The notes beneath the pieces were generated by a model. It did no database searches, had not been told where the DNA came from, and saw only the letters and a program-made list of their open reading frames with translations. Shown here in pieces: positions 1,284 through 64,000 of a stretch of 64,000 bases of DNA (positions are counted from its first letter, which is position 1; each line of letters starts with the position of its first letter). Made by a program: the position numbers and the translations under genes. Origin of the DNA: an uncultured Deferribacteraceae bacterium (lineage in GTDB: Bacteria > Chrysiogenota > Deferribacteres > CAMZNJ01); assembly GCA_947313855.1 (NCBI GenBank), contig CAMZNS010000017.1:12555-76554 (forward strand), given 5' to 3'.

Positions 1284-2687
1284 TTAAAAGTATACATTCA
1301 GAGCCGTTGCAAACGATGTTGCATTTGTGGGGTACACATCTTTGAAGCTACCTCTGTTGGTTTCTGCGGTTACGCCAACATTGAAGTAGTTATTGATGAG
1401 GTATTCGGCGTGTGCTGAGAATTGGCTAGATTTGTCGGTTGGAACGTACGAGTAGGACGATTTGAATCGGAATCGTGAGTACAGTTCGTATTCAATGCCG
1501 GCGGTGACAACCTTGGCGTCGATATCCACATCTTCATCGTCCTCGGAGCCTTTGACCTCTTCCAAAACATCTTCCATGGCTTTGTTGGCGGAGTCTTGGA
1601 AGTAGTATTCAGCTGTGAGTCTCAGGTTGCCGCTGGAATATTCCGTCCCTGTTGATACCTGGTAAAAGAGTGGGTTTCCGTTCGGTTTCCCCTCTGGTGC
1701 AGTAAAGTTTACCTCCCGATTGAGGAAGTTGGATTCAGAGTCAGAGAGTTCGTTTGCACCGCTATTGAAGTAGGATATTTGGTGCATAGCCCCTTCGACG
1801 TAGAATCCGAAGGAGTAGAAGTGTTTTTCCAGGGAGCCACCGCCGTAGTTGCTTCGAGTTATCTTGCAGAGGTAGCCCACGTCCGTACCTAGCAGTCCGC
1901 AACGATTGATGGTGCCACCTTGGAGCTGAACGTCCACAGCTTCGGCATTAAGATTGGAGCGTACCATGATGGTTTTGCTACTTTCGTTGGTGGATAGTCC
2001 GTAGACAACGTTTATTTCGGAGAGCCCCACAGGGATATCCATACGCATAACGTCGATTCCGTAGCGGTATTCGGAGTTGAGGTAGATATTGTAGACGTCC
2101 AAGGGTGAGTACACGTTTGATGTACCGAGCCCAACGGGTTGGCGACCAACCTTGAGGTTAAAGTATGGTGATGGGATGTTTAGGTAAAGCCAGTCCATGT
2201 CGAAGTAGTAAATACCGGCTCCGTTGGGGAGGTATCCAGCTTTAGTAAAGTCTGCAATGCGATAGGTGGTATCGTTACGATTAACGTTCGCGGGGGCATC
2301 GTATGCGGGGAAATACTTGCTTGTTAGTAGGAAGGAGTCGTAAATAAATACTGCGTCAAAGCGATCCCCATCCTTGTCGTAAGGGTCAACTTCCCTTATT
2401 TGCAAAGCGATAGCACCCAACGTTGGTTGAGCGACAAAGCGTATGTAGTCGCCACCGATATCGAAAAGGAGTCTGTTGCCTGCCTCGAACTTGTTTGCAC
2501 GTGTTTCGAAGTAGTCGGTAAAGTCGATACCAATGCTTGTTGTCGACAGGTCAAGCATTGTGTCGGTGCCGATACTTGCGTAGTACCCATCTCCGTACTC
2601 TAGTGTTATTCCATATGCAGGCACTGCAGCGAAAGCTATCGTTGTACTAATTAGTAGTAAAATTAAATTCTTTTTCATTGCCATCAT
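1284..2687 (-). CDS. Putative outer-membrane beta-barrel protein (start uncertain: 2702/2687/2678)
   Basis: Signal peptide MKKNLILLLISTTIAFAA; aromatic alternating strands; GRQPVGLG motif; C-terminal Phe (ALNVYF); last gene of the LolA-like/ABC operon. Confidence 0.7.
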   Translation of the reverse strand: MMAMKKNLILLLISTTIAFAAVPAYGITLEYGDGYYASIGTDTMLDLSTTSIGIDFTDYFETRANKFEAGNRLLFDIGGDYIRFVAQPTLGAIALQIREVDPYDKDGDRFDAVFIYDSFLLTSKYFPAYDAPANVNRNDTTYRIADFTKAGYLPNGAGIYYFDMDWLYLNIPSPYFNLKVGRQPVGLGTSNVYSPLDVYNIYLNSEYRYGIDVMRMDIPVGLSEINVVYGLSTNESSKTIMVRSNLNAEAVDVQLQGGTINRCGLLGTDVGYLCKITRSNYGGGSLEKHFYSFGFYVEGAMHQISYFNSGANELSDSESNFLNREVNFTAPEGKPNGNPLFYQVSTGTEYSSGNLRLTAEYYFQDSANKAMEDVLEEVKGSEDDEDVDIDAKVVTAGIEYELYSRFRFKSSYSYVPTDKSSQFSAHAEYLINNYFNVGVTAETNRGSFKDVYPTNATSFATALNVYF

Positions 2688-3357
2688 AGTGAATTTGCCC
2701 ATCCCTTAACCATATTAATCTATCGCAATAACTCATTACGTCTTTGTCGTGTGTGGAGATTAGAAATGTAATCCCACTTGTTTTGTTTAGTTGACTAACG
2801 AGCTCCAGAAAACTTTCCGAGGTTTTTGAGTCCAAGTTTGCAGTGGGTTCATCCGCAAGGATAATCGCAGGGCTTGAAGCCAGTGCTCGTGCAATCGCAA
2901 CACGTTGTTGTTGTCCGCCAGAGAGTTGACGCGGATACCGACTCTGCAGGTCAGCAATACCGACGGAGTCCAACGCCTCCAACGCCATGGCACGACGTTC
3001 ACTGCGTGGCACCCCTTGAATAGTCAGAACATACTCGGCATTCTCAACGGCGGTTAAAACAGGGATAAGGTTGTAGCTCTGAAAAATAAACCCCATTTTG
3101 TGGCGACGTAGTGCACTTTGTTGATGGCTTGTGTACCCTGTTGTGAGGTCGTCATCGACGTAGATAACGCCGCTAGTGGGGGAATCCAGTGCACCGATGA
3201 GGTTGAGTAGTGTGGATTTCCCGCTACCGGAGGGGCCACCCATGGCAGTCAGCTCACCGGCTGTTATCTCCAAAGAGACGTCGTTGACGGCAAGAACCTC
3301 AACATCACCCTGTTTGTAAATTTTACTCACGCCTTCAAGCTTTATAATAGACTTCAT
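2647..3357 (-). CDS. ABC transporter ATP-binding protein, LolD/MacB-like
   Basis: Walker A GPSGSGKS, signature LSGGQQQR, Walker B IILADEPT, H-loop STHD; SD GGTGGAG before ATG 3357. Confidence 0.93.
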   Translation of the reverse strand: MKSIIKLEGVSKIYKQGDVEVLAVNDVSLEITAGELTAMGGPSGSGKSTLLNLIGALDSPTSGVIYVDDDLTTGYTSHQQSALRRHKMGFIFQSYNLIPVLTAVENAEYVLTIQGVPRSERRAMALEALDSVGIADLQSRYPRQLSGGQQQRVAIARALASSPAIILADEPTANLDSKTSESFLELVSQLNKTSGITFLISTHDKDVMSYCDRLIWLRDGQIHYDGNEKEFNFTTN

Positions 3358-3420
3358 ACAAACTCCACCATATTCCAGCACATGGCTCTATAAACAAGTA
3401 CTAGCGTACTTTAATTGTTA

Positions 3421-5055
3421 TCATGACCTATCTGTTATATCAACATCTGTACATTTCTTCACGCCAACAAGATTTAAAACGGCAGATGCCACCCAGATAT
3501 AAATAAATGTTCCCCAGAAGTTGGACATACTTAGCCTAGCGTAAACACGTAGGTCGGAGAATTGGAAAAACAGCTCCGATATTTCGGACAAATTGAGTAT
3601 CTTAGCAAAATCAACACCGATACGCGAAAGGGGGATTAGCAACAAAAACGTTAGCAGGCTACCGATTACAGCACCCAAGAAACCGTAAAGAACACCCTCG
3701 ATCAAAATCTGCAAGCGTAAATAGGTTGGCGAAGAGCCCAACGAGAGGATTGTGGAAAATTCCCGTCTACGCTCAAAAACAGACAACAGAAATATATTCA
3801 AAATACCAAGGATTATCAAAAATATGAGCATGTACGTAATAACCTTGACCAATGCCCTGTCAAACGCAATAAACGACACTATCTCAGGCTTAATCTCATC
3901 CCAGCGGAAAACAGTGCGGGTATCCGTATTAAGGTAGCTCATGGCCGAATAAATACGCGGTAAGTTCTCAACAGCATCTATCTCAAGACCGATACGAGTG
4001 TACTCATCAGGCTCCATACCCAAAAGGGATCGAAGAGTCTCGCGATTGGTCAAAACAACACCGTCATCGTACTCACTACCACTTGTATCAAGAATCCCGT
4101 ATACGCGAAGGGATCGCATGCTCAACTCGCCACTCTTATCGCTAGCACCAACAACAACCCTACTACCAACACGAAGATTCAGCTTCTCAGCCAAATCAAC
4201 ACCGATAACAATGCGATTAGTCGTGGTCTCATCGATAAACTGACCGTCAACAATGCGACTCTTCAACGGAATAACCTGATCGAACATATCAAAATCTGTG
4301 GCACGAATGGAAACACTCTTGGTATTGTATGGCGACTGAACCACACCCGTTGCCAAAACATACGGCTTCACATAAGTAACACCCTTGATATTCGCAATCT
4401 CATCCAACTCACTTGCAGAAATATTAATGGTGTTGCCGTTGGACGGATACTCGTAGTAGGTAGGACTCTGAACAACAACAAAACCCTCGGTCGCCTTTAT
4501 GTTTTCAGAGATGAGCTTGTGGAAAAAACCTTCGCCGAGGCTAAGCCAAACCATGGTAAACGCCATACCAGCAGCAAGAGTTAGTATAATCGCAAGGGAG
4601 CGAAGCCTGTTACGCACCATGGTACGTATTGCCAAGCGGAAGATCATGGCGAGGTTGCTGCCAACGCCACCATGTTGCTCGGTGCCCTTGGGTTTGTGGG
4701 GCACTGACGCTGACGCTGACGCTGATGACGGCACTAACGCTGACGCTGATGACGGCACTGACGCTGATGACGGCACTGACGCTGACGCTGACGCTGATGA
4801 CGGCACTGACGCTGATGACGGCACTGACGCTGACGCTGATGACGGCACCGACGCTGATGACGGCACTGACGCTGACGCTGATGACGGCACTGACGCTGAC
4901 GCTGATGACGGCACCGACGCTGACGACGGCACTGACGCTGATGACGGCACTGACGAATGGGAATCGCTATGGCTGCCGCTACCATTATGATTATGATTAT
5001 GCTTATTCTTATCCTTATCGATGCGTCCTTCCAAGTTACTCTCGGGTCTAGCCAT
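3421..5055 (-). CDS. ABC transporter permease, LolE/FtsX (MacB-PCD) family, with ~135-aa low-complexity N-terminal extension
   Basis: LAIRTMVRNRLRS TM1 lead-in, periplasmic domain, ERRREFSTILSLG motif; ATG 5055 has GGGGG SD and overlaps the upstream stop. Confidence 0.88.
   Translation of the reverse strand: MARPESNLEGRIDKDKNKHNHNHNGSGSHSDSHSSVPSSASVPSSASVPSSASASVPSSASASVPSSASVPSSASASVPSSASVPSSASASASVPSSASVPSSASALVPSSASASASVPHKPKGTEQHGGVGSNLAMIFRLAIRTMVRNRLRSLAIILTLAAGMAFTMVWLSLGEGFFHKLISENIKATEGFVVVQSPTYYEYPSNGNTINISASELDEIANIKGVTYVKPYVLATGVVQSPYNTKSVSIRATDFDMFDQVIPLKSRIVDGQFIDETTTNRIVIGVDLAEKLNLRVGSRVVVGASDKSGELSMRSLRVYGILDTSGSEYDDGVVLTNRETLRSLLGMEPDEYTRIGLEIDAVENLPRIYSAMSYLNTDTRTVFRWDEIKPEIVSFIAFDRALVKVITYMLIFLIILGILNIFLLSVFERRREFSTILSLGSSPTYLRLQILIEGVLYGFLGAVIGSLLTFLLLIPLSRIGVDFAKILNLSEISELFFQFSDLRVYARLSMSNFWGTFIYIWVASAVLNLVGVKKCTDVDITDRS
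4700..4955. repeat. In-frame tandem array of 6/18/24-bp units (GACGCT; GATGACGGCACTGACGCT) encoding (SA)n-SVPS repeats
   Basis: Read directly from sequence. Confidence 0.95.
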
Positions 5056-6444: not shown

Positions 6445-7212
6445 CTAGCGTATGCGACGAATGTTAGTTAACGAGAAGAAGTTGCGAGCAATCGGAGTAT
6501 CAAACACTAGCGAATCGTACTGAAAAACAGTGTACTGACCCTCCACTAACTCATTGGTAGCAACAATACGAAGAGGGGTTAGCTTCCCATCAATCTCCTG
6601 CACATCAGAAAACTTCTTAACACGCACAATCTCACCGAGATCGTCGTAGTATTCTTCGGTCACAGGGAGTCCGGTCTTAGGCGATACATGAAGAACCACC
6701 TTATCCCAGATGATTGCAGAATCTTTGTCGGGGATGCACTGCAAGGTCTGTTCAACACGATCGTCCCGCGTCACCTCACAAACGTAGTCTTCAGTAAATG
6801 TGTTCGACTCAACAAGGTCGTTGTTGGTGATATCACTCCCCATCCAGCCGTCGTCCATGAGGGATGATGGCACTTTGATAATTCTGTCGGTTTTAGGGAG
6901 GTAGTTGTAAACAAGGTCATCAACCATTAGGGTTGCTGTGCCCCTATCGATCCTAGGTTGGTCAACCATGACGATAAAATTGTCCGTACCTTCACTCCAA
7001 GTGCGTAGGGATAGGGTTCGGGTAAACCTAGAGTTATGAATGGTCATCGTTGCCTTGCCTTTAGTGGTTTCGGAGCGAAATAAGTTGTCCACACCCTTCA
7101 ATATCTCCAGTGCACGTGCATCGGTGGTTTTGCCCAACGAAACTGACGGGGCAAAAGAGAACGTGAATAAGAGCAGGGCAACAGCAACGCTAAAAGCAAT
7201 AACATGACGCAT
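6445..7212 (-). CDS. Outer-membrane lipoprotein-sorting protein (LolA-like fold)
   Basis: Signal peptide; GTATLM..YNYLPK..RII..SS...WMGSDITNNDL and C-terminal FFSLTNIRR pattern typical of the LolA_like family; adjacent ABC genes. Confidence 0.8.
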   Translation of the reverse strand: MRHVIAFSVAVALLLFTFSFAPSVSLGKTTDARALEILKGVDNLFRSETTKGKATMTIHNSRFTRTLSLRTWSEGTDNFIVMVDQPRIDRGTATLMVDDLVYNYLPKTDRIIKVPSSLMDDGWMGSDITNNDLVESNTFTEDYVCEVTRDDRVEQTLQCIPDKDSAIIWDKVVLHVSPKTGLPVTEEYYDDLGEIVRVKKFSDVQEIDGKLTPLRIVATNELVEGQYTVFQYDSLVFDTPIARNFFSLTNIRRIR

Positions 7213-7890: not shown

Positions 7891-8724
7891 ATGAAAAAAT
7901 ACGCTATCTTCCTTATTATTGTTCTTGCGACGATGGCAATGGGTATTGCCGCTCAAACGAGTATCCCCGACTCCCTTCGCAAGTACTACCCACCATACTC
8001 CCACAACTACGAGTTTTACAACAACATGCGTAATCAGGAGATCGCTTTGATGTCCCTCAAGGATGGTATCGATCGAGGCGATTGGGCGACAATCGAAAAG
8101 TGGTCATTGTCACTCAGCTTTCTCAACCAAAGAGCCAACGCCATGGTTCCTGAGTGGAAGGACTACGAACGCGATCGCACCTACGTGGAGCTACTGAAGA
8201 TTATCAACAGCAACGACTCCGCAAACAGGGATATCGGTCAGGTATCCACCCTCTACAATGCCGTCGTTGTTTCGTGCGATTCCTGCCACACCGTCAATCT
8301 TGCCAACACAAAACGTGTGTTCTACTCCAACTTCGTCGACAAAAACACAACCATTTTGAGCAACTACAACAAGCAGGTCTACACATACAAGTCGTACATG
8401 GACTTCGTAAACAGCAACCTCAAGGGGATGGTTGTAGCATCCCTGAGCAATAACTGGCGTAGCTCTGCACAGAAGTTTAACGCATTCTTCTCCTCTTATG
8501 AGCAGCTTGAGGAAACTTGTGCTTCATGCCACAGTGATCAGGCGAGTATCGACCGGTTTTTCGGTAAAAGTTACCTACGCCAAAAAGCACGTATCCAGCT
8601 CGATATTTCCAAGCGTTTGTCGGACAACCTGTCATACGATGTTCGTAGTTTTGAGGACAACTATTGTCAGAGCTGTCACAACACGCATAGGTGGACGGAT
8701 CCCGCCCTTTTCGACAGAAAATAG
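7891..8724 (+). CDS. Periplasmic triheme cytochrome c (helical, cytochrome c'-like)
   Basis: Signal peptide; three CXXCH motifs (CDSCH 8275, CASCH 8518, CQSCH 8665); IPDSLRKYYPP N-terminal motif. Confidence 0.88.
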   Translation: MKKYAIFLIIVLATMAMGIAAQTSIPDSLRKYYPPYSHNYEFYNNMRNQEIALMSLKDGIDRGDWATIEKWSLSLSFLNQRANAMVPEWKDYERDRTYVELLKIINSNDSANRDIGQVSTLYNAVVVSCDSCHTVNLANTKRVFYSNFVDKNTTILSNYNKQVYTYKSYMDFVNSNLKGMVVASLSNNWRSSAQKFNAFFSSYEQLEETCASCHSDQASIDRFFGKSYLRQKARIQLDISKRLSDNLSYDVRSFEDNYCQSCHNTHRWTDPALFDRK

Positions 8725-8755
8725 CCGCTTTTTTCAAAAAAAATAGAATTTTTTA

Positions 8756-8784
8756 TTGATATTGCATACCTCTAAGTATATAGT
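8756..8784 (+). promoter_or_regulatory. Putative sigma70 promoter for TPR-dut-trmI-surE-TPR
   Basis: TTGATA-17 nt-TATAGT. Confidence 0.55.
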
Positions 8785-8831
8785 ACTATTTGTACTGGGT
8801 GTACTATACATATTTGAGCAACGAGGTGTGT

Positions 8832-10211
8832 GTGTCTTTCAAGACATTATCTGACTGCTCTTTACGGGTTCCTTCTGCATATTGCTCTGCATACTATTCT
8901 GCATACTATTCTGCATTGCTATTGCGATTGATATTTCGATTGATATTGCTATTGCCGTTCCTGTTTTTAGCAGCACTAACTTTAACCTCCAATACCTCCT
9001 TTGCCGACACGGACATTAGCCCTAATAGCAGACGTGTTGCGAATCTGAAGGAGATACGTGGAAAAGATATTGTTGATCAGTCCGACGTGGCTGTTCATCA
9101 ACTTTCACAAAGTGCTTTAAATAGCACACCTATTATTGTGCCCAAACTGACTATGCCCAAACGCAACAATATCACCGATTCACAATCCCCAACAGCACAC
9201 AACTGGCAACCACCCAAACTTCCAAACACCCTTGACGCACGCGAACTTGCCACCTATGGTGCACAATTCGACAATACCACCGACTCACAACTTGTGCTCG
9301 CGTACCTGCATATCGAACAGGGACACTACAACACTGCACTCAAAATCCTGAAAGAGGCATCTGTGCTGGAACCCTACGACAGTCGTATTCAGTTTTTGTC
9401 TGGCATAGCCTACCTCTTGTCTGGCTCCTACTACTCGGCAATCACTAGCCTCAACCGCTCACTGAAACTCCAAGAAGAGGCTCTAACCCAACCGAACACT
9501 GCCAACACTGCCAACACTGCCAACACCCTCTTTGACGCCCCCATCGCCCCGTGCACTTACTACGGACTTGCCATGGCTCAAACCCTTGCCGGCAGACACT
9601 CCCAAGCCTACAATACCACCACAGGGCTAATCAACTCATACAAAACAGCAACCACAACAGCAACCACAACAGCAACCGCCAACCTGCCACTACTCACACC
9701 CCAAAAAACAGGGATGACATGCTTTTACAACCTGCAAAAACAGGTACTTAACCTAATCCCCAACGGCGGTCTGTCGGATGCCTCCCTTCGCAAGGTGCAC
9801 CCCCTAGACACCAACATGCAACTCGCCATACTCTACTACCTGCGTGCAGTCATACTTAGCAACGCAAAATACTTTAACGACGCGGTGGAGGACGACAAAC
9901 AAGCCATCAAACTTGTGCCCAACGAAGTTGCATTCCAAAACCACCTCGCATACAACTACATGGAAGCGAAAGAGTTCCGAAAAGCGGTGGAGCAACAGTT
10001 ATCCATCATCGCTACCTTCGGCGGCTCAGCATACTCCTACAACGCCCTATCCCTAGCGTACACACTCTACGGAGCTCTGGAAAGTGACAACCACCTGTTT
10101 TACCAACAAAAAGCCAAGGAAGCCTCCTACAACGCCTGCTACTTCTACCAAGACTGCACGATGTACAACTCCATTAACAACGGCGACGTCTTTGTGGAAC
10201 AATTATATTGA
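8832..10211 (+). CDS. TPR-repeat protein with N-terminal hydrophobic segment (start uncertain; GTG 8832 after GAGG)
   Basis: TPR consensus in LAYLHIEQGHYNTALKIL..P...IQFLSGIAYLLSGSYYSAI and C-terminal repeats; internal 9- and 12-bp tandem repeats. Confidence 0.7.
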   Translation: MSFKTLSDCSLRVPSAYCSAYYSAYYSALLLRLIFRLILLLPFLFLAALTLTSNTSFADTDISPNSRRVANLKEIRGKDIVDQSDVAVHQLSQSALNSTPIIVPKLTMPKRNNITDSQSPTAHNWQPPKLPNTLDARELATYGAQFDNTTDSQLVLAYLHIEQGHYNTALKILKEASVLEPYDSRIQFLSGIAYLLSGSYYSAITSLNRSLKLQEEALTQPNTANTANTANTLFDAPIAPCTYYGLAMAQTLAGRHSQAYNTTTGLINSYKTATTTATTTATANLPLLTPQKTGMTCFYNLQKQVLNLIPNGGLSDASLRKVHPLDTNMQLAILYYLRAVILSNAKYFNDAVEDDKQAIKLVPNEVAFQNHLAYNYMEAKEFRKAVEQQLSIIATFGGSAYSYNALSLAYTLYGALESDNHLFYQQKAKEASYNACYFYQDCTMYNSINNGDVFVEQLY

Positions 10212-10281: not shown

Positions 10282-11145
10282 ATGAACCTTACCACCAACG
10301 AAACCATGAACAAATACACAACCCAACACCTCTACCAACAACCCATCTCGCTAGACGACAAATACAACATGGAAGACCTCGCCAACCTACTACACAACAC
10401 ATTCGCAAGACCATCATCATCGGCAACAACGGAAAATAACGACAACAACAGACATAGCCATCTGAACAATGACCATCTCAGCGGTAACGGTAACGGTAAC
10501 GGTCATGATGGCAACGGCGAACTCCGTACTGTAAACGTTGACCATGCCCGCAGTATCCTCAACCACCTCTTGGCATCATTGGAGTCCCACAGCACACACG
10601 GCACATACGACTCACACGACTCACACGGCGGCTTCCAACACCCTCACCCCACTGCCCCAACAGCCAAGACTACCGCTAACACCAACACTACCCACACCGC
10701 TGACGAACAGGTCACCATTCGCGTACACCGTGCCCCCAACGCCAAGCTCCCCACTTACGGGAGCACAGAGGCTGCTGGTGCCGATATTTCCGCACTAAAC
10801 GGTGGCGTCATCAACCCCGGTCAACGTGTTCTCATCGCCACAGGGCTACGTATGGAGATACCACAAGGGTACGAAATACAGATACGACCCCGTAGCGGTC
10901 TTGCCCTCAAAAAAGGTATCACCATGCTCAACACCCCCGGAACCATCGATAGCGACTACAGGGGCGAAATCGGACTCATCGCCATCAACCACTCCCAAGA
11001 AGTTTTCCGCTACGAAAAAGGTGACCGACTTGCACAGGCCATCGTTGCTCCCGTCTTGCGAGCAACGTTTGCGGATTCCACAGTCCAACCCCTTACTGCA
11101 TCAGAGCGTGGTAGCGGAGGGTTCGGCTCCACAGGGATTGGCTGA
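10282..11145 (+). CDS. dut: dUTPase with ~140-aa His/Asn/Thr-rich N-terminal extension
   Basis: Motifs AAGADI, QIRPRSGLA, NTPGTIDSDYRGEI, RLAQ, RGSGGFGSTG; no ATG/GTG immediately before the catalytic domain (~10705). Confidence 0.93.
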   Translation: MNLTTNETMNKYTTQHLYQQPISLDDKYNMEDLANLLHNTFARPSSSATTENNDNNRHSHLNNDHLSGNGNGNGHDGNGELRTVNVDHARSILNHLLASLESHSTHGTYDSHDSHGGFQHPHPTAPTAKTTANTNTTHTADEQVTIRVHRAPNAKLPTYGSTEAAGADISALNGGVINPGQRVLIATGLRMEIPQGYEIQIRPRSGLALKKGITMLNTPGTIDSDYRGEIGLIAINHSQEVFRYEKGDRLAQAIVAPVLRATFADSTVQPLTASERGSGGFGSTGIG

Positions 11146-11206
11146 GCACCTAGTCGTAACGCACAAGCCCCACCTAACACAATTTATAGCAAACCGAGGC
11201 ACACGA

Positions 11207-12007: not shown

Positions 12008-12009
12008 TC

Positions 12010-12867: not shown

Positions 12868-12885
12868 CAACAGGAGGCTACTTGC

Positions 12886-15681: not shown

Positions 15682-15705
15682 AAATAAACGGCAAAAATAA
15701 CTCAA

Positions 15706-17052: not shown

Positions 17053-17080
17053 AAAACCCCAGACATAAACCCGAAAGGTC

Positions 17081-42945: not shown

Positions 42946-42951
42946 TCTCAG

Positions 42952-50999: not shown

Positions 51000-51002
51000 C
51001 TT

Positions 51003-51641: not shown

Positions 51642-51715
51642 CACTGATGAACACAGCAAGCACCCTCGCCTACAACTATGCCACAACTATGCCACAACTA
51701 TGCCACACACCTCCC

Positions 51716-54075: not shown

Positions 54076-54128
54076 ACTTAACTCCAAAAAAATCATTCAT
54101 TCGTCCACTCTAACTAACAAATTTATAA

Positions 54129-54914
54129 TCACAAAATCCGATGGAACACCCTGTTACGACGACTCAAAATCAGTATCAAAACTATGTTGACAACACTCAC
54201 AAAAACCATAATCGAAGTAATAGCATATGCCTGAGGAGTCAAACCTATACGTGCCATCGAATACACCGTCAACGGGAAAATAGGGTAAGTTACCTCCGAC
54301 AAAAAGAAACTCACAACAACATCATCCATGGACAACGTAAAACTCAACAACATGCTGCTAACGATACCCGGAAGCAACAACGGAAACAAAATATACCAAA
54401 AAACCTTCACCTGACTCGCACCAAGATCGTAAGACGACAAAAATATATTCCGATCAAGACCACGCAAATAACCGTAAATAACCACCACCGAAAACGGCAA
54501 CGTCAACACCGTATGACCTATCAACAAACGAACAAAACCACCATCAATACCAAAAATATACAGGGTGCTCGACAACGATATCCCCAAAACAATGTCTGGA
54601 GCTATCAAAAGCAAAACCAAACCGTAACCCATGAACAACTTCCCACGAAAACGATAAACATAAAACAATAACGACACCGCTACACCCAAAATAGTCGAAC
54701 TAATCGCCGTGGACAAACCCAAAATAAGGGAATTCACAAACGACAACAAAATATGGCTACCCGTAAAAATATTCGCGTACCACTCAAACGTAAATCCCTT
54801 CCACACCGGCAACTTCGAACTATTAAAACTAAACAGAAGAAGAACCATTATCGGAAAATAAATAAACAACAAAACTATGCCAACATAAAACCTACTCGCA
54901 ATAAACCTCAACAT
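54129..54914 (-). CDS. potC: Spermidine/putrescine ABC permease
   Basis: FIYFPI..L..FSFN, GFT.EWY, FTLSMDDVVVSFF. Confidence 0.9.
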   Translation of the reverse strand: MLRFIASRFYVGIVLLFIYFPIMVLLLFSFNSSKLPVWKGFTFEWYANIFTGSHILLSFVNSLILGLSTAISSTILGVAVSLLFYVYRFRGKLFMGYGLVLLLIAPDIVLGISLSSTLYIFGIDGGFVRLLIGHTVLTLPFSVVVIYGYLRGLDRNIFLSSYDLGASQVKVFWYILFPLLLPGIVSSMLLSFTLSMDDVVVSFFLSEVTYPIFPLTVYSMARIGLTPQAYAITSIMVFVSVVNIVLILILSRRNRVFHRIL

Positions 54915-54916
54915 AA

Positions 54917-55906
54917 CTAAACCGAACCCCCATTACCTAATGAAGATGCACCAACATCACCACGGCTACCACGACCCTCTGAAACACCACCACCAGAAAA
55001 AAACGACGAACTACGCCAACCCAACCAACCAACAAACAACGGTACCAAAACCAACACAATCATAAACACAACACTTATCGCACTACCATAACCCCAGTTG
55101 CCCGCAACAGTGTATTGATTGCGAATGAACCCGCCCAACAACAACGTCTTCGAACCACCAAGAATATCCGAAACATAAAACATGGTCAAAGACGGCGGAA
55201 ATACCATCAAAATACCACCAAAAACACCAGACCGACTAAGGGGAATAGTTATCTGAAACAACGTGCGAACCGAACTCGCACCAAGATCGTGAGCAGCACT
55301 GTAACACTCCCACGGTATCTTGCGAATGGAATTGTAAACAGGCAAAATCATGAACGGCAACAAAACATAGACCATACCAAGCACAGCAGCAAAATCGGTG
55401 TAAAGAAGGGGCAACGGCTCGCCAATAACACCTAATCGCAACAACAACGCATTAACCATACCGTTGGAAGACAAAATAACCTGAAACGCAAAAATCTTGA
55501 GGATAGTGCTCACCCAAAAAGGCAAAATCAACAGAACCAACACAACCAAACGAGTGCGAGGACGCAAACCCGACAATGACAACGCAAACGGAAAACCAAC
55601 AGCAAGGGTAACAAACGTAACACTCACAGACATCCACACAGAACTCAACAACACCGACGCAAATACAGACGTAAACACATCGCCATAACCACTAAAAGTA
55701 AACGGCAACGTGTAAAACTCCGTGGGGGTATGGCTCGTGAAACTCAACAACAACATCAGAAACATGGGCACAGCAACAAGGACTATCAACACACACGACA
55801 CTAACACCAACAACCCTGTACGCAACATACCCCGTCGCCCCAAGGGTGTTGCGGTCGCAGGTGCAGACGTGGTCGCAGGTGCAGACCTCTGTCGGTTATA
55901 TCTCAT
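54917..55906 (-). CDS. potB: Spermidine/putrescine ABC permease
   Basis: LILPFWVS, GMVYVLLPFMILP.Y, AA.DLGAS, GNWGYGSA. Confidence 0.9.
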   Translation of the reverse strand: MRYNRQRSAPATTSAPATATPLGRRGMLRTGLLVLVSCVLIVLVAVPMFLMLLLSFTSHTPTEFYTLPFTFSGYGDVFTSVFASVLLSSVWMSVSVTFVTLAVGFPFALSLSGLRPRTRLVVLVLLILPFWVSTILKIFAFQVILSSNGMVNALLLRLGVIGEPLPLLYTDFAAVLGMVYVLLPFMILPVYNSIRKIPWECYSAAHDLGASSVRTLFQITIPLSRSGVFGGILMVFPPSLTMFYVSDILGGSKTLLLGGFIRNQYTVAGNWGYGSAISVVFMIVLVLVPLFVGWLGWRSSSFFSGGGVSEGRGSRGDVGASSLGNGGSV

Positions 55907-57014
55907 GGGGGTAATACACAACCTCCCAACCGCTTATCCAGTTCACAGCAACCTTGTCACCAACATCTTCATCCAGCTCCTCGTGCTCCTCGTCAAAGAA
56001 CTCGCTCACCGCAATGGTTTTCCCACTTTCAAGCTCAATATCCAGCTCAACTGTAGCACCCTTGTAGGTTTTGGTTGTAACCGTCCCCAGCATGTACCCC
56101 CCAAGATCGTCTGCCACGTCCTCCCTCTTGAAAACACGCATATCCTCAGGACGCAGGAGTATCTTGCACTCCTCCCCAACACCATCTTTCCCCGAAATAT
56201 CGATAACGCCCCTAGCGTTCTCCACCAAAACTGTGGCGGATTTGGCACCACCTGTGTTAGTGGTTTGTGTGCGAGAGATTATGGTTGCGTCGAAGATGTT
56301 TGCATTACCGATAAATGTTGCGGTGAACAGGTTTTGCGGTGTTTCGTAGACCTCTTTCGGCGTCCCAATCTGTTCAATCCGTCCGTCGCTCATAACCACA
56401 ATACGACTACTCAGAGCCATGGCTTCCTGTTGGTCGTGTGTTACGAGGATGAAGGTGATTCCTAGGCGTTGTTGTAGCTGTTTAATCTCCGTCTGCATCT
56501 GAGCACGTAGCTTCGCATCTAATGCCGACAGGGGTTCGTCTAGCAGAAGTATGTTCGGTTTATTGATGAATGCTCGTGCCATTGCGACCCGCTGTTTTTG
56601 TCCCCCAGAGAGTTCGTGGGGTTTGTGATGTGCTTTGTCGGATAGGTGCACCAACTCTAAGGCGTTGTACACCTCGTCGCGTATGACATCTTTGGGCATG
56701 CGACGAACTTTCAGCCCGAATGCAACATTATTGAACACGCTCATATGGGGGAACAGGGCGTAGTTTTGGAAGACAGTGTTGATGGATCTTTTTTCGGGTG
56801 GGATGGGGGTGATGTTTGTGGTTCCGAGGCGAACACTGCCTGCGTCTGGCACGACAATACCGGAGATAATGTTCAGTAGGGTGGTTTTCCCGCACCCCGA
56901 TGGTCCTAGCAGTGTTAATATTTCGCCGGGGTGTACCTCGAAGCTAATATTATCAAGCACTTTTTTGCCGTCGAAGGATTTAGAGATACTGTTGATGTAT
57001 AGCGTTTGGCTCAT
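55896..57014 (-). CDS. potA: Spermidine/putrescine ABC ATPase
   Basis: LLGPSGCGKT, INTVFQNYALFPHM, LSGGQKQR, LLDEPLSALD, TOBE tail SEFFDE..W...WEVV. Confidence 0.95.
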   Translation of the reverse strand: MSQTLYINSISKSFDGKKVLDNISFEVHPGEILTLLGPSGCGKTTLLNIISGIVVPDAGSVRLGTTNITPIPPEKRSINTVFQNYALFPHMSVFNNVAFGLKVRRMPKDVIRDEVYNALELVHLSDKAHHKPHELSGGQKQRVAMARAFINKPNILLLDEPLSALDAKLRAQMQTEIKQLQQRLGITFILVTHDQQEAMALSSRIVVMSDGRIEQIGTPKEVYETPQNLFTATFIGNANIFDATIISRTQTTNTGGAKSATVLVENARGVIDISGKDGVGEECKILLRPEDMRVFKREDVADDLGGYMLGTVTTKTYKGATVELDIELESGKTIAVSEFFDEEHEELDEDVGDKVAVNWISGWEVVYYPHEI

Positions 57015-57082
57015 GGTTGTAAAACACCTCTGTTGCGGCAAAATAAAACATTTTTTCCTATCTTAGCCTACAAAACTGGTGT

Positions 57083-57111
57083 ATTGTCGTTGTTTTTGAC
57101 CGTTGTGTCAA
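57083..57111 (-). promoter_or_regulatory. Putative sigma70 promoter for potABCD
   Basis: TTGACA-17 nt-GACAAT. Confidence 0.5.
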
Positions 57112-57279
57112 GTATTTTTTGCTATATTTTCCATATTTTCACAGTTTATAGTTGCACACAAAAATGGGGGGTTTCTGCATTTCTGCCTCTGAAAAAATTG
57201 CTGTATTTTCTGTTTTTCATGATTTTTTCTAATTTAAGGGGTGTTTTTATTAAGGTCAACATAAAGGTGCATTCTTCCC

Positions 57280-57308
57280 TTGACTTTCCAACGGTTTTAA
57301 GATACCAT
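57280..57308 (+). promoter_or_regulatory. Putative sigma70 promoter for tRNA-Arg
   Basis: TTGACT-17 nt-TACCAT. Confidence 0.55.
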
Positions 57309-57368
57309 TCTATTGACGAGAAATGGCTTTAAGGGGTTGCGTTCAATCCTAAATATATCGGTGCACGA

Positions 57369-57421
57369 CTGAAATTGAAATTGAAATTGAGATTGAATTT
57401 GAATTTGAAATTGAATTTCAG
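57369..57421. repeat. ~8 x 6-bp (TTGAA[A/T]) microsatellite bounded by inverted CTGAAATT/AATTTCAG
   Basis: Read directly. Confidence 0.85.
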
Positions 57422-57507
57422 TACTGGCTGTAGTTTACTCTGTACCTAATATAATTATGCTCATATGTTGTAACGCTTCCCTTTGGAGCATTTCGCTCCA
57501 TCTTCAT

Positions 57508-57581
57508 GCCCCCGTAGCTCAGCCGGATAGAGTAGTGGATTCCTAATCCAAAGGTCGGACGTTCAAGTCGTCTCGGGGGTG
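57508..57581 (+). tRNA. tRNA-Arg (anticodon CCT), CCA not encoded
   Basis: Cloverleaf: acceptor GCCCCCG/CGGGGGT, D arm GCTC/GAGT, anticodon loop TTCCTAA, T arm GGACG-TTCAAGT-CGTCT. Confidence 0.95.
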
Positions 57582-57589
57582 CTTTTTCC

Positions 57590-57875
57590 CACGCAGCCAC
57601 CACAGCCACCACGTCACACAGCCACCACGTCACACAGTCACCACGTCACCACGCAACAACGCAACACCGTCACCATGCAACAACGCAACACCGTCACCAC
57701 GTCACACCGTCACCACGCAACAACGCAACAACGCAACACCGTCACCATGCAACACCGTCACACCGTCACACCGTCACACCGTCACCACGCAACAACGCAA
57801 CACCGTCACCATGCAACACCGTCACACCGTCACACCGTCACACCGTCACACCGTCACACCGTCACACCGTCACCC
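57590..57875. repeat. ~285-bp satellite built from CACCGTCA and CAACGCAA 8-mers
   Basis: Read directly; fills the tRNA-lptG convergent gap. Confidence 0.9.
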
Positions 57876-59009: not shown

Positions 59010-60191
59010 CTAACTCAGCATACCACGAACCTTCACAACTGAAAAAATACCTAACGTTATGTTTGCCAACCAAGGCAACACAAGGGGTGTAGCATACAGA
59101 ATCGCCCTACTTGCAATACCACTGTCCACATCCCCACTAGGGGCAAACAGGGGCAGGGTTTGAACCCACAAAGCAATCCCTGTGCCAACGGTTTGCAATC
59201 CGTAGTAAGCGAGTATCACCCCAGCAGCGTAAAGCATCAGACGCATCTTGCTGTTGCGAGAGTGGAACACGCCGTACACCACCCCCAAAATGGACATTAT
59301 CAGTACGGCGAAAATCGAGGCTGTTCTCTTGCTCAGCTCCAACTTCGCCTCAGCGGTATCACCTGTGTGCCATTGACGGATTAGATCCCTAGTGGAGCGA
59401 TACCCAACGGATTCGCCACCCAAAACTGTGTCGGGCTGAATAACTCTCTGCGTGTACACCATTTTGTCGAAGGAGACGTAAGACAAGGCGGGGGAGGAGT
59501 TAACACTACGCGACGACGTATCGCCAATATCATCGTACCACACGAGACCCCCCTCATCTAACATGAATACCAGAAGACCGCGGTCAAACTCGAAATCAGC
59601 CCGCTTGCTACTAATCACAAGGGGTTGCTGCTTCACACCGATGCGAACATTTTTGAAGGTGTTACCCTCATCAACTTCGTCAACGTAAAATTGGAGGCTA
59701 GGCAGGTGGTTGTAGGTTACTTTCGGTTGCACATCGCTGAATACATTGTTGTTGATGGAGTACTGTGCTACGGCAAAAATATCTTTACCTCCCAAGGGTG
59801 CCAAATAGAATGTTGAAAACGCCGTAATGGACATCATCGCACCGGTCAAGAATAGCACAGGACGAAATAGATCCCACCGACCCATGCCAAGGGACAGCAT
59901 GGACACAGTTTCGTTGTCGGCACTCATACGGCTGTACACAACAAGGGTGGCAATAAGACCGGATAACGGCAGGCTCAGACCGAGTATGGGGGGGATGGTA
60001 TCGAGTATGATGCGTATGGATAGCAGGGGGGGAACGTTGTACAAAAGCAACGTGGGGGCAACCTCAACAATGGTGGACGACTGAAGTATTACTACGATGA
60101 AGATATTCGCAACTATCACAACAGGGATGAGGTCTTTGAGAATATACGCATCAGTTTTAGTTATTTTTAGTCCCATAGTCATAGTAAACAA
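59010..60191 (-). CDS. lptF: LPS export ABC permease LptF (start may be 60176)
   Basis: DAYILKDL.P, YSRMSADNETVSMLSLG, KLELSKRTA, WLANI. Confidence 0.88.
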   Translation of the reverse strand: MFTMTMGLKITKTDAYILKDLIPVVIVANIFIVVILQSSTIVEVAPTLLLYNVPPLLSIRIILDTIPPILGLSLPLSGLIATLVVYSRMSADNETVSMLSLGMGRWDLFRPVLFLTGAMMSITAFSTFYLAPLGGKDIFAVAQYSINNNVFSDVQPKVTYNHLPSLQFYVDEVDEGNTFKNVRIGVKQQPLVISSKRADFEFDRGLLVFMLDEGGLVWYDDIGDTSSRSVNSSPALSYVSFDKMVYTQRVIQPDTVLGGESVGYRSTRDLIRQWHTGDTAEAKLELSKRTASIFAVLIMSILGVVYGVFHSRNSKMRLMLYAAGVILAYYGLQTVGTGIALWVQTLPLFAPSGDVDSGIASRAILYATPLVLPWLANITLGIFSVVKVRGMLS

Positions 60192-60235
60192 CCGCCGATT
60201 AATCCTATCGTATTATTTGTCAGTGATGACGGGGC

Positions 60236-61852
60236 TCAGTCCCCTTCCATGAAACTGCCCAATGCTAGGTACTGGTAGGTTGCGTACAGCAATAAGCTAC
60301 TATCAGACATGGTCAGAATATCACCTGTTGAGACCCTTGCAAGGGGGGGGGTATGCTGTGCATTCATTGTACCCCATATCGGTGTAGATTGGTAGTGGTT
60401 AAATACCTGCGGGGCAGACTCGGTAAGCAGTGAGGCAGCTTCGTCTGTTACCGCTAGCTTCAACTTTGTTCGCAAACATGGTGCAAAACCTTGCGTAGCC
60501 AACTTGCATGAGTACTGGTAAGGTCGGTTCGTGTTTACGATGAGAACCGACGCCTCCACACTTTCTGAGACTGTTGCTGTTGGTAGACAGATTATGCTCC
60601 CCACGTTGCTTTGGGCGGGAGCATCACCTGTGCCGTACTGTGGTGCAAGAAGCCATATGTTCTGGAGGAACGCCCCCTCGCCATCTTCAGGGGATCCCAA
60701 ACCATCCCAACAGGCACCACCAAGGGAAACAAGAGGGGCTTGGTGGAGCCCCATGATATGGTAGCTCTCCTTGGCATAGGTGGCTGCAACACCTTGCCAA
60801 TACGAATTAGCATTAACACCAGCATCAGCACCCACAACACCATAGGTGTACGCACCGTACATGGCGTCCAAACGTTGCAACACCAACGCCTTCAAATACG
60901 CATCCGAACCCGAACCACTACTGTAATCCTTTAGCATCTCACCGTAAAGGGACTCCTTCAAAGACTCCATACCACGCAAACCCCTAGTAGACAACGGCAA
61001 AATATCAACCGTACTCCCATCCACACCACCAATCAACTCGGAAGTCTCCACCAGCAACACAGCAATATCCATTGCCGAATACGTAATCAACAACGTGGGC
61101 ACACCCTCAATAATGTAACGCAACTGAACCCACTTAACATAATCACAGTAGGCACCAGCACTCGAAACACTAATACCATCGTAAGGGTAGCCGCTCGAAC
61201 CGTACCTGCACAAACCACTCAACTGACGAAAAACAACTTGCACATTACTGCGAATACTGTCCAAGCTTGTGATGGGGTATGTTGGTGTTCCCGTAAGGCT
61301 ACTGTTGTACAGGGCATAACTACTGCGTATGGTGGCAATGTCGAGACGGCGAACAACACTCTGCAACAGTGAAACATCGATACCGCTAGCATACGAATTG
61401 CGAAGTAGGTGTGTGTAATTGTACGGCAACATATTCGCCGAAGGGGTACGCAACTCATGCAAAGGGATGGGAAGACGCTCCAACGCCTCCACGTAGATAA
61501 CCTGCTCACACTGCCAACAGTAGGTGCGACCACTCCTCGCAAAGGTGCGATTCAGGGCTTTCGCCGACGCAAGGGCATTGCGAAGAATACTATTGTACTC
61601 TGCAGATATGGACGCCAATCCTTGAGAACCAAGAGCCGAAGCGGGGATAGTAACGGAGGCGTTGTACATGAGTTCCGCCGTTTCTTCATCAACAAAAACA
61701 GGGGTAGTGGTGGCGGTGACGGTAGTGTTGGCAAGCACCACCCCTGTTGCCACGACCATGCACACAGTACCAAGAAACACTCCACGAAACACACCACGAA
61801 ACACACCACGAACTGCATCTAACATCATAACAATTAACCTCAGAACTGCCAC
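60236..61852 (-). CDS. Hypothetical exported protein
   Basis: 538-aa ORF coupled between mnmA and lptF; hydrophobic leader containing (RGVF)3 from a 12-bp repeat; no recognisable family. Confidence 0.6.
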   Translation of the reverse strand: MAVLRLIVMMLDAVRGVFRGVFRGVFLGTVCMVVATGVVLANTTVTATTTPVFVDEETAELMYNASVTIPASALGSQGLASISAEYNSILRNALASAKALNRTFARSGRTYCWQCEQVIYVEALERLPIPLHELRTPSANMLPYNYTHLLRNSYASGIDVSLLQSVVRRLDIATIRSSYALYNSSLTGTPTYPITSLDSIRSNVQVVFRQLSGLCRYGSSGYPYDGISVSSAGAYCDYVKWVQLRYIIEGVPTLLITYSAMDIAVLLVETSELIGGVDGSTVDILPLSTRGLRGMESLKESLYGEMLKDYSSGSGSDAYLKALVLQRLDAMYGAYTYGVVGADAGVNANSYWQGVAATYAKESYHIMGLHQAPLVSLGGACWDGLGSPEDGEGAFLQNIWLLAPQYGTGDAPAQSNVGSIICLPTATVSESVEASVLIVNTNRPYQYSCKLATQGFAPCLRTKLKLAVTDEAASLLTESAPQVFNHYQSTPIWGTMNAQHTPPLARVSTGDILTMSDSSLLLYATYQYLALGSFMEGD

Positions 61853-61858: not shown

Positions 61859-62917
61859 CTACAAAGCAGAGGAGATAAAACCACCACCCATAAGTCTGTT
61901 GTCTTTATAAATCGCAGCCACCTGACCCGGTGCTGGTGCAAACTGATGCTTCTCAAAAAGGATTGCCGCCCTGTTGTCTGGCAAAATCTCGATTTTGGCA
62001 CGCTGGAGCGTCATCTTATAACGCAACTTCACATCAACTTGACTATAATTCTCAATATTGCCAATAATGTTCATCTTTTCAAGCATCACACCCCAACGAC
62101 CCGTACGATATTTCTCGTCAAGGATGATATCACCCGACGGCAGAATATCAACCACAAACAACGGCTCAGCCAACCCACCAATATCCAATCCCTTACGCTG
62201 TCCGATGGTGTAGTACGCAACACCATCATGCTCCTTCAACCGCTCACCCTTGTAGATAAACCAACCTTTTTTGTCGCGAATACGCCCCTTCAGATAATCA
62301 CGATAATCACCACCCTCAAGGAAACAAGCATCTTGGCTTTCAGCCTTCTGAGCAACATGCAAACCAGCATCAACAGCAATCTGACGCACATCCTCCTTCT
62401 CACGACCAGACAAAGGGAACACAAGTAGCTGTACAAAAAGACTATTCACCAACGCCAAATAGTAACTCTGATCCTTAGGATTCAAAGGGTTACCCAAAAT
62501 ATGATCAACACCTTCAAACTCCACCTTGCCCGCATAATGACCCGTTGCCATACGAACACAACGGTGCTTCTTCATCTCAGAAAACAGGTAGTACGTTTTA
62601 GCATCATTGTTACACTTAGCACAAGGATTCGGCGTTTCACCCCGCTCATACGTCGCAACGTAGTAATCAATAATGCTCGCCTTAAAAAGCTCTGTGTAAT
62701 CAGCCAAATGCCACTCGATACCAAGCTTGGAAGCAACAGCTTTCGCATCGTCAAAACGTGAATCGGGCATGTCGTACAGCTTGAGCGACACTCCGATAAC
62801 CTCGTAACCCTGCTTCTGAAGCAGATACGCCGTTACTGACGAATCAACACCACCACTCATTCCCAAAAGAACCCTACTACCTGCAGGAAAATCCTGCACA
62901 ATGTACTCCTGTGCCAT
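61859..62917 (-). CDS. mnmA: tRNA-specific 2-thiouridylase
   Basis: GMSGGVDSS, NPCAKCN, ATGHYA, KDQSYYL, ESQDACF, YTIGQRKGL, PGQ; GGGGAG SD. Confidence 0.96.
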   Translation of the reverse strand: MAQEYIVQDFPAGSRVLLGMSGGVDSSVTAYLLQKQGYEVIGVSLKLYDMPDSRFDDAKAVASKLGIEWHLADYTELFKASIIDYYVATYERGETPNPCAKCNNDAKTYYLFSEMKKHRCVRMATGHYAGKVEFEGVDHILGNPLNPKDQSYYLALVNSLFVQLLVFPLSGREKEDVRQIAVDAGLHVAQKAESQDACFLEGGDYRDYLKGRIRDKKGWFIYKGERLKEHDGVAYYTIGQRKGLDIGGLAEPLFVVDILPSGDIILDEKYRTGRWGVMLEKMNIIGNIENYSQVDVKLRYKMTLQRAKIEILPDNRAAILFEKHQFAPAPGQVAAIYKDNRLMGGGFISSAL

Positions 62918-63084
62918 ACTACCGCTCCCCAAAATACCACAAAAATACAAAATGAAAACGTGGCAAACAATAACAAAGACTACAACAGCACTGTGGAAAA
63001 AACAACACCAAATACAACAAAACTGCTACCAAGCAACGAACACAATAGTGTACAATACATACAAAATAACAGGAGAAAAACAAA

Positions 63085-63723
63085 ATGCTACTAGGGATAG
63101 ACGAAGTCGGAAGAGGTGCTCTAGCTGGACCCGTCGCTGTATGCTGTATCGCTATACCAGCAAAACTAATACACGAACTAGAACCAAATATCACAACAAA
63201 TAAACAAACAAATAACAAATTCAAAGATAGCAAAATACTCTCTCACAAACAACGAACAGAACTACACAAATACCTAACCAACAACCCAAACATAATCTAC
63301 CACGTCGCCTACTACAACAACAAACAGATCGACAAACTCGGAATACAACAATCCATACACAATGCCGCTCAACAAGCTCTAATCAAAATACTCTCACAAA
63401 TTAACACCAATCAACCAAAAAATATCGCCGTAGACTACATCGCCAACATCGAAAACTCACTAAAACCACACACACACCCAAAAACAACCATCACTGTTAC
63501 CAAAAAAGGGGATACAAAATTCCTCGAAATTGCCGCAGCATCAATAATCGCAAAAGTCGAAAGAGACAACCTAATGACACAACTACACCAAAAATACCCA
63601 CAATACAAACTCAACAACAACAAAGGATACGGTACGCAAAAACATATCCAAGCAGTTCAACAACACGGACGCTCAAACATACACCGTAAATCATTCCACA
63701 TCAAAAATATGGCGGATAACTAA
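63085..63723 (+). CDS. rnhB: Ribonuclease HII
   Basis: GIDEVGRG.LAGP, DSK, KGD...IAAASIIAKV.RD, KGYGT..H, HRKSF. Confidence 0.95.
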   Translation: MLLGIDEVGRGALAGPVAVCCIAIPAKLIHELEPNITTNKQTNNKFKDSKILSHKQRTELHKYLTNNPNIIYHVAYYNNKQIDKLGIQQSIHNAAQQALIKILSQINTNQPKNIAVDYIANIENSLKPHTHPKTTITVTKKGDTKFLEIAAASIIAKVERDNLMTQLHQKYPQYKLNNNKGYGTQKHIQAVQQHGRSNIHRKSFHIKNMADN

Positions 63724-63726
63724 TAA

Positions 63727-64000
63727 ATGAAAATCAACAAAAACAACAAAGGCGTAATCTTCGAAAAACAAGCCGCCAAATACCTGAAAAAACAAGGATA
63801 CAAAATTATCAACACAAACTACCACTCAAAATTCGGCGAAGTGGATATCATCGCCCAAAAAGACGACTGCATCGTTTTCATCGAAGTCAAAGGACGAACA
63901 ACAAATAACAAAAACAACGTAAACTCAAACATGAAAACACAAATGGCAAACGTCAAAGGATACCAATTCGTTAACCAAAATAAAATTAATAAGTTGATAA
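63727..64000 (+). CDS. yraN: YraN (UPF0102) family protein, truncated by window end
   Basis: G..FEKQAAKYLKKQGYKII..NY..KFGEVDIIA..D.IVFIEVK; usual position after rnhB. Confidence 0.88.
   Translation, partial: MKINKNNKGVIFEKQAAKYLKKQGYKIINTNYHSKFGEVDIIAQKDDCIVFIEVKGRTTNNKNNVNSNMKTQMANVKGYQFVNQNKINKLI

Follow-up and report, generated by a model that had tools for sequence, protein, structure and literature searches.

Persistent kilobase-scale reversals of strand-asymmetric base composition in a 64-kb region of the Candidatus Rimicarispirillum genome

Can the direction of a strand-asymmetric substitution bias be reversed over stretches shorter than a gene, and what would keep such reversals in place? 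The question is raised by a 64,000-nucleotide stretch of DNA (hereafter the window; contig CAMZNS010000017.1 of assembly GCA_947313855.1, positions 12,555 to 76,554) from Candidatus (Ca.) Rimicarispirillum (Deferribacterota), a gut symbiont of Rimicaris shrimp with a reduced genome of ~1.3 Mb. An initial annotation of the window described a + strand that was A/C-rich whatever the direction of the genes, with embedded patches of the opposite polarity, and named dispersed replication initiation, strand-specific mutagenesis or repair tracts, and recombinational import from oppositely oriented relatives as candidate causes. Throughout, K denotes G/T, M denotes A/C and KM is (G+T-A-C)/N.

Ca. Rimicarispirillum belongs to the family Ca. 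Microvillispirillaceae and has been described from four metagenome-assembled genomes (MAGs) of two species, of 1.25-1.36 Mb and ~47% G+C (PMC9636832). In the public collections, close relatives were limited to 'uncultured Deferribacteraceae' MAGs from Rimicaris exoculata. Loci covering the whole window were compared in R1 (GCA_947313805.1, 97% identical to the window) and C2a (GCA_947313785.1, 88-89%), and most of the window was covered in C2b (GCA_947313825.1, 88-89% identical); the two species represented by the four genomes are ~88% identical. All of the results refer to this one 64-kb region (~100 kb including flanks) and to MAG consensus sequences. The gene content of the window is that of a diderm, flagellated anaerobe, with recognised genes for PFOR, the fliF-G-H-I-J cluster, lptF/G, mla, a lolA-like gene, potABCD, murP/murQ, a serine dehydratase and a multihaem cytochrome.

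Strand bias and reversed patches

The KM of the + strand was as low as -0.50 per 500 bp, with GC skew reaching -0.50 and AT skew reaching +0.50 per kb. At fourfold-degenerate sites, the bias persisted and was stronger; the KM per gene ranged from -0.78 (potC) to +0.41 (ppiD) independently of the gene direction, which bore out the described A/C-richness in genes of both orientations. The background fourfold skews were -0.63 (GC) and +0.60 (AT) in genes of both orientations, and the background G/T share was 0.16 in + genes, 0.19 in - genes and 0.30 in the adjoining intergenic DNA. The opposite polarity of the patches likewise held at fourfold sites, with a GC skew of +0.31 and an AT skew of -0.30.

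The third positions were strongly overdispersed, with a variance 8 times the binomial (blocks of 50; chi2 = 2906, 363 degrees of freedom), and 0 of 1000 shuffles came close. The log-likelihood was -11878 with one state and -10767 with a three-state hidden Markov model (HMM), a gain of 1110 units. The three states had K shares of 0.17 (background), 0.37 (intermediate) and 0.69 (patches), and comprised ~35%, 43% and 21% of the silent sites, respectively. The three-state path divided the 64 kb into ~60 segments, 20 of which were reversed. The reversed patches were 0.2-2.9 kb long and held ~20% of the silent sites. Every patch named in the initial annotation was recovered by the HMM (1033-2791, 19235-22121, 29184-30253, 41152-43122, 49479-50019, 53476-53887, which was weak, and 56232-57018 with upstream intergenic DNA), and the patches were thus confirmed as real; further patches were found at 3097-3289, 6817-7129, 8496-9140, 26184-26439, 31535-32306, 45084-45933 and 59982-60695.

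The expectation that polarity switches only at the origin and terminus of replication failed, with switches every 0.2-5 kb, including within genes. The patch edges were sharp in both directions, with jumps in the G/T share of 0.3-0.5 between neighbouring 50-site windows. Edges were located within the intact genes for PFOR, ppiD, potA, fliI, fliF, potD and a Big_2 adhesin-like protein, in agreement with the earlier view that the flips are not simple inversions. The flips were visible in the plain base composition, without any gene model.

The neighbouring bases had a strand-symmetric effect, a silent site being 0.12-0.31 likelier to be G/T if both flanks were G/T, in all compartments and both gene orientations. 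Neighbour-base context was rejected as the cause of the compartments, which were still 0.4-0.5 apart within each context.

At 500-bp resolution, the skew profiles of all of the genomes superimposed across the window, and the gene order and orientation were identical in all four. Each reversed segment had the same position and a similar K share in the window, R1 and C2a, and the patches were found at the same places in C2b. There was no discontinuity at the patches or their edges in the divergence profiles. As the patches are common to four genomes of two species, they are neither assembly artefacts nor recent events, and they predate the split of the two Ca. Rimicarispirillum species. The possibility that chimeric contigs, binning or wrong reading frames produced apparent flips has in its favour that all of the genomes are MAGs and that two long open reading frames (ORFs) in the gene list are spurious. 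We nevertheless consider it extremely remote: every patch is common to four MAGs from different samples, contigs from the source run crossed the edges of the PFOR patch without difference (records 18000-19988 and 20343-22455), the flips do not depend on gene models, and the reading frames are backed by Pfam domains. The coincidence of the patches with assembly joins, which the initial annotation had raised as an objection to its own claim, was not observed.

Substitution dynamics and codon usage in the compartments

The analysis of whether the compartments are maintained or decaying was performed on 15396 synonymous third positions aligned in three genomes, using a two-state (K/M), clock-like, non-stationary likelihood model. 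The K>M share of the exchange rate was 0.80 (confidence interval, CI, 0.72-0.85) in the background, 0.60 in the intermediate compartments and 0.32-0.37 (CI 0.22-0.47) in the patches. The predicted equilibrium K shares were 0.20, 0.40 and 0.65, respectively, and the observed shares were 0.17, 0.37 and 0.69. A single common K>M share was rejected (p = 5e-7 to 1e-5), and so was a model in which the patches were forced to the background share (twice the log-likelihood difference, 2dLL, of 31-36). This outcome did not depend on whether the window, the other species or both served to define the compartments. Every compartment is at its own compositional equilibrium. On the background + strand, the changes per site were 6.4% for G>A and 3.9% for T>C vs 2.0% for C>T and 1.2% for A>G.

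This result bears directly on a reading of the patches as relics of an old recombination mosaic, in which stretches were replaced before the species split by alleles from an oppositely replicated lineage, or whole genes were inverted. The patches are sharp-edged blocks with flat plateaus and have sizes usual for recombination tracts, the codon usage and the amino-acid-coding positions look like the outcome of a long stay on the other strand, and an excess of patches in - genes would fit co-orientation selection after inversion. A relic under the background bias would, however, give K>M and M>K changes in the patches at ~4:1 to 10:1, whereas the polarised patch changes were 78 K>M vs 57 M>K, with K sites ~2.3 times as numerous as M sites. 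An independent check in the shallow pair of the second species gave 19 K>M vs 15 M>K in the patches (1786 and 782 sites, respectively). With the background rates imposed, a relic model was worse by 85-91 log-likelihood (lnL) units, and a relic model with two rate classes and a class-specific starting composition was still at least 15 lnL units worse than patches with their own regime, at an equal number of parameters. From the pattern counts, the G/T sites differing between the species amounted to 8% in the patches vs 39% in the background.

A single common bias could be rescued by strong heterogeneity of the rates among sites: it fitted with a gamma shape of ~0.2, and shapes up to 0.5 removed the power of the test. 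The sites variable in both shallow pairs numbered 5, vs 4.7 expected at equal rates and ~14 or more expected at a shape of 0.5 or less, and a third base was found at 17% of the variable fourfold sites, vs ~15% expected at equal rates by our estimate. A fossil skew under a common, near-symmetric present process, which needs a gamma shape of ~0.2, was excluded by this co-occurrence test.

Other traces of a mosaic were sought with a similar outcome. Neither the four genomes nor the protein collection yielded a donor lineage, a paralogue or an alternative allele, the closest homologues beyond these MAGs being distant (57% identity for PFOR and 25% for PpiD). The orientation of the genes was constant in the four genomes, remoter relatives being too distant for comparison at 57% PFOR identity, the divergence did not jump at the edges, and the reversed stretches were not bounded by gene or operon ends, which does not favour inversion. 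We consider an old mosaic unlikely. Of the causes proposed in the initial annotation, import from oppositely oriented relatives was the least supported, with no donor, no divergence jump and no decay.

At fourfold sites, transversions made up more than half of the differences between the species (in the background 0.28 in total, of which 0.11 were transitions) and were mostly A<>C on the A/C-rich strand; the transition:transversion ratio was unusually low for bacteria.

Transversions that are neutral with respect to K/M provided a further comparison of the compartments. The A<>C and G<>T changes per site were 2.10% vs 0.84% in the background, and 0.71% vs 1.80% in the patches. The interaction between the type of transversion and the compartment had p = 0.015 on the shallow branches and p = 0.03 between the species. 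This swap of the strand asymmetry is predicted neither by selection on K/M codon choice nor by a relic.

The codon usage of the patch cores in - genes resembled that of the background + genes (r = 0.78), and the cores in + genes resembled the background - genes (r = 0.64). The - cores and + cores were dissimilar (r = 0.28) and overshot in opposite directions, twofold sites alike. In every codon family, T-ending codons were scarcer in the - cores than in the + cores, against the direction of the mutation pressure, and one common selection in the coding sense is therefore excluded. A single codon usage shared by patch genes on both strands, as in genes resisting the skew, was also considered and rejected; it had been obtained with whole genes lumped, and the cores alone were mirror images. 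The initial annotation had allowed that expression-linked codon optimality might account for its patches, and one strand-independent set of optimal codons does not. Codon positions 1 and 2 shifted equally in + and - genes (G/T shares of 0.40, 0.47 and 0.52 in the background, intermediate compartments and patches), and the intergenic DNA tracked the adjoining compartment (0.30, 0.43 and 0.50). The recent intergenic changes also differed by compartment (12:5 vs 0:4, p = 0.02).

A balance of selection and mutation has to be weighed here. In this reading, selection favours C- and A-ending codons in genes that are highly expressed and lie on the G/T-rich strand, probably the leading one; it would override the mutational skew and so mimic reversal, with the patches in + genes being a separate, minor effect. 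Strongly reversed silent sites comprised 34% in - genes vs 6% in + genes, and the affected - genes were PFOR, ffs-ppiD, potA, potD, murQ, a PNP-family phosphorylase gene and, left of the window, GAPDH and PGK. Judged by their identities, PFOR, ffs-ppiD, GAPDH and PGK may be highly expressed; a search for RNA-seq runs containing the sequence returned none. Balanced fluxes would be expected under such selection, and the PFOR core avoided CGA and GGA relative to the background + genes. On the other hand, the three plateaus of G/T share in PFOR (0.53, 0.74 and 0.44) lie within one transcript and did not follow the amino-acid conservation (no correlation, r = -0.18), and potA and fliI switch in mid-gene. 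In + genes, 47% of the silent sites were less A/C-rich than the background and stably so (rate share 0.62; 0.80 rejected, 2dLL = 11-12), which selection for A/C-ending codons cannot yield. The inferred selection coefficients for - and + cores were opposite in sign in every fourfold family. The shifts of the intergenic DNA and of codon positions 1 and 2 show that the effect is not confined to third positions, and the G/T-neutral transversions swapped their asymmetry as well. In our judgement, selection of this kind is improbable as the explanation of the patches.

Each compartment has been at its own equilibrium since before the species split, and the patches are therefore kept by a persistent local cause. 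We read the patches as a persistent, position-specific reversal of a strand-asymmetric mutation process, and give this reading a probability of about 0.5. The window would then be made up, as a mosaic, of heritable compartments in which strand-asymmetric substitution runs in different directions. In the background, the - strand would gain G/T via C>T and A>G, a classical replication-type asymmetry of unusual strength; in the patches, the same kind of process would act with the two strands swapped, and intermediate compartments would also be present. The cause would be persistent, local and tied to the strand rather than to the reading frame, and is presumably mutational. The - strand is probably the leading strand. 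The local cause could be some DNA transaction by which the other strand is exposed or newly synthesised time and again over fixed intervals of 0.2-2.9 kb; one candidate is the leading-strand-template gaps that arise as the replisome restarts past an obstacle. The same physical strand gains G/T in all of the patches and would be the leading-strand template if the - strand leads, and for this reason restart gaps are named as the most concrete candidate.

A broader proposal is put forward tentatively. Which strand is mutagenised may be decided locally, in fixed intervals of 0.2-2.9 kb, and inherited across species. The silent-site mosaic may then be a fossil map of the places at which the 'wrong' strand is exposed or newly synthesised by some DNA transaction, with recurrent restart gaps or local synthesis against the main fork as candidates. 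If this were true, such maps could be read from the sequence alone in strongly skewed genomes.

Several observations weigh against a reversed mutation process. A search for a local determinant, which covered motifs, repeats, a sawtooth and 5' anchoring, found none. No origin-like sawtooth was seen, upward and downward jumps at the edges in the window being equally sharp; no 4-6-mers were enriched at the edges (best p 1e-4 among 4443 tests, the top words being merely G/T-rich); the edges in the window were not associated with minisatellites or tandem repeats; and there was no general anchoring of the patches at the 5' ends of genes (mean difference +0.02, p = 0.38). The strongly reversed sites lay to 88% in - genes, including PFOR, ffs-ppiD, GAPDH and PGK, for which high expression is expected; selection for C/A-ending codons would produce such an excess as well. 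By our arithmetic, a single selection strength of ~2 fits both the rise and the fall of the two rates in the patches. The block-like plateaus with sharp edges resemble recombination tracts. The substitution evidence consists of a few hundred polarised changes, analysed with a two-state clock in MAG consensus sequences of one 64-kb region, and the transversion tests reach p of ~0.02-0.03 each.

With regard to the remaining causes suggested in the initial annotation, strand-specific mutagenesis or repair tracts were weakly supported: the substitution process of the patches is strand-swapped and persistent, but the recent substitutions were not clustered in tracts (coefficient of variation of the gaps 1.0-1.1). 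Dispersed replication initiation was not supported by the shape of the profile, which had no origin-like sawtooth, nor by any motif or repeat at the edges.

Individual patches, background domains and neighbouring features

The strongest reversed patch (41152-43128, G/T share 0.78) took in the 5' 85% of ppiD (-) and ffs, and ran across the divergent intergenic region into the first codons of flgB. The ffs gene, which encodes the bacterial small signal recognition particle RNA, is located at 42841-42937 (-); it shares the strand of ppiD and immediately precedes it. This patch encloses both ffs and a promoter-like site at 42981-42952. The patch in the PFOR gene (gene 18725-22363, -; patch 19235-22121) had a plateau of G/T share of 0.70-0.78 over residues 361-1020, with edges at ~19285 and 21285-21365 and flanks of 0.38-0.58.

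In the flagellar genes, the patch at 49479-50019 was located within fliI (+), in the ATPase core, with a G/T share of 0.67 vs 0.33-0.37 in the flanks, and its two edges were the sharpest in the window. Another patch, at 45084-45933, lay in the 5' half of the + gene fliF; the G/T share there was 0.53-0.58 in C2a, compared with 0.64-0.74 in the window.

The patch at 56232-57507 included the 5' two thirds of potA (-) and the upstream intergenic DNA up to the tRNA-Arg gene (57508-57582, +). At the left of the window, the patch at 1033-2791 covered the 5' end of the DAHP synthase gene, a whole hypothetical gene of 467 aa and the 3' end of an ABC ATPase gene (all -); its G/T share was 0.67 in the window, 0.66 in R1 and 0.66 in C2a. 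The Big_2 adhesin-like gene (-) had two short reversed patches in its 3' part, at 31535-32306; its 5' part (32603-34349) was extreme background.

Weaker patches were identified at 29610-30298 (G/T share ~0.58-0.61), comprising the 5' end of murQ (-), the divergent intergenic region and the 5' end of rpiR (+); at 53476-53887 within potD (-; 0.61); and at 59982-60695 in - genes (0.59), covering the 5' end of lptF and the 3' end of a hypothetical gene of 538 aa. The stretch at 8496-9140, in + genes, was weakly reversed or unskewed (0.57) and included the 3' end of a cytochrome c gene and the 5' end of a TPR gene. The hypothetical genes in the patches had no NCBIfam name.

Outside the window, to its left (L008 18761-20825), the genes for GAPDH and PGK are located on the G/T-rich strand and have A/C-rich third positions (coding G/T share 0.34-0.37). 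An adjoining phosphoribosyltransferase gene had a coding G/T share of 0.81. GAPDH and PGK are further reversed patches, in classically highly expressed genes.

The largest background domain (11142-18356) contained the + genes trmI, surE and a hypothetical gene of 931 aa, and the - genes of two MATE pumps. Its third-position G/T share was 0.16-0.17 (the lowest HMM state), with fourfold bins of -0.4 to -0.93, and its skew profile was the same in R1 and C2a. The 931-aa ORF (12886-15681, +) had no Pfam or NCBIfam match, was conserved in all of the relatives compared (931-938 aa) and was extremely A/C-rich at all three codon positions, with a fourfold KM of -0.63. Further background domains comprised the mlaE/mlaD-like operon of + genes (22790-25665, G/T share 0.19); fliJ and a flbB-like gene (both +) with brkB (-) at 50639-52763; the 5' end of potD with potC and potB (- genes; 53953-55832, 0.15), which share an operon with the reversed potA patch; and mnmA (-) with rnhB (+) at 62009-63720. 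The flbB-like gene, which follows fliJ (51003-51641, +), had a weak match to FlbB (NF047368, E = 2e-12, under the curated cutoff); FlbB is a collar protein of the periplasmic flagellum, and the match is of note in a spiral bacterium that is not a spirochaete.

Two long ORFs in the gene list, at 26677-27720 (+) and 44177-44641 (-), are probably by-products of the skewed composition; in their place, the relatives are annotated with a gene of 163-203 aa at 26700-27278 (-) and with fliE at 44355-44684 (+). Other long antisense ORFs (e.g., 55722-56465 and 33329-33829) are likely of the same kind. Approximately 26 distinct minisatellite arrays were present in the 64 kb (e.g., 4710-4955, 26736-26858, 44730-44870 and 57598-57874), many of them in frame within genes; they included an 18/42-mer array in the gene of an FtsX-like permease and a 12-mer repeated 10 times at 26736-26858.

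Low-depth contigs (4-5x) in the source metagenome differed by 14-17% from the PFOR gene over 18849-22337, which is more than the ~7% by which the second species differs from the PFOR of the window. The same sample may thus contain a third lineage that is Rimicarispirillum-like and more distant.

Comparison with known systems and significance

Codon usage determined by the strand, with GC and AT skews of the type described by Lobry, is known from Borrelia, Treponema, Chlamydia and Buchnera. As in such replication-associated skew, the G/T-rich strand of the window is the same for both gene orientations, the effect is found mostly at silent sites and in intergenic DNA too, C>T and A>G on one strand prevail in the substitution spectrum, and the amino-acid composition is dragged along. 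Unlike it, the bias in the window is stronger (fourfold GC skew of -0.63) and switches every 0.2-5 kb within genes, and the reversed stretches are at equilibrium.

The heavy/light asymmetry of vertebrate mitochondria is due to the deamination of the strand left single-stranded in replication. The window is similar in that C>T and A>G changes on an exposed strand would give a strong contrast of G/T and A/C at fourfold sites; in mitochondria, however, the bias changes smoothly with the time that the strand is single-stranded, whereas the window has discrete blocks of both signs.

To our knowledge, restart gaps are the sole described process that would expose the leading-strand rather than the lagging-strand template over ~1 kb, at places set by obstacles and in either gene orientation. 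Conflicts of replication and transcription, both co-directional and head-on, have reportedly been described by Merrikh and colleagues in 2011 and by Pomerantz and O'Donnell in 2008. Leading-strand repriming and the gaps left by replisome restart have been reviewed (PMC8136793). No description of a compositional footprint of such gaps was found in the literature, and, unlike in restart-gap systems, nothing in the window marks the patches as obstacle sites.

Genes that are mosaics through homologous recombination share with the window the sharp, sub-genic, kb-scale blocks, which the strong strand bias makes visible here. They differ from it in that the window has no second allele lineage and no phylogenetic or divergence discontinuity, and its fluxes are balanced.

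Strand skew routinely serves to find origins, to infer inversions and to debate the evolution of genes on the lagging strand. All of these uses take a local reversal to be a recent rearrangement or import, which will fade; the reversals in the window are sub-genic, predate a species split and are at equilibrium. Should the cause be mutational, the mutation spectrum of a bacterium can have its strands swapped over kb stretches at fixed positions; this would point to an undescribed regularity in replication, restart or repair, and the inference of inversions from skew could fail systematically. Local reversals of GC skew have been interpreted as signs of gene inversion (Merrikh and Merrikh 2018, PMC6220195). 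This reading was criticised by Liu and Zhang (2022, PMC9098844), who ask for tests at silent sites, and the test in the window uses silent sites only. The patches resemble the proposed inversions in that the skew of a gene is opposite to its strand context, mostly in genes now on the presumed leading strand; they are unlike them in that the edges lie within genes, the orientation is constant in four genomes and the skew is stably maintained, with no decay.

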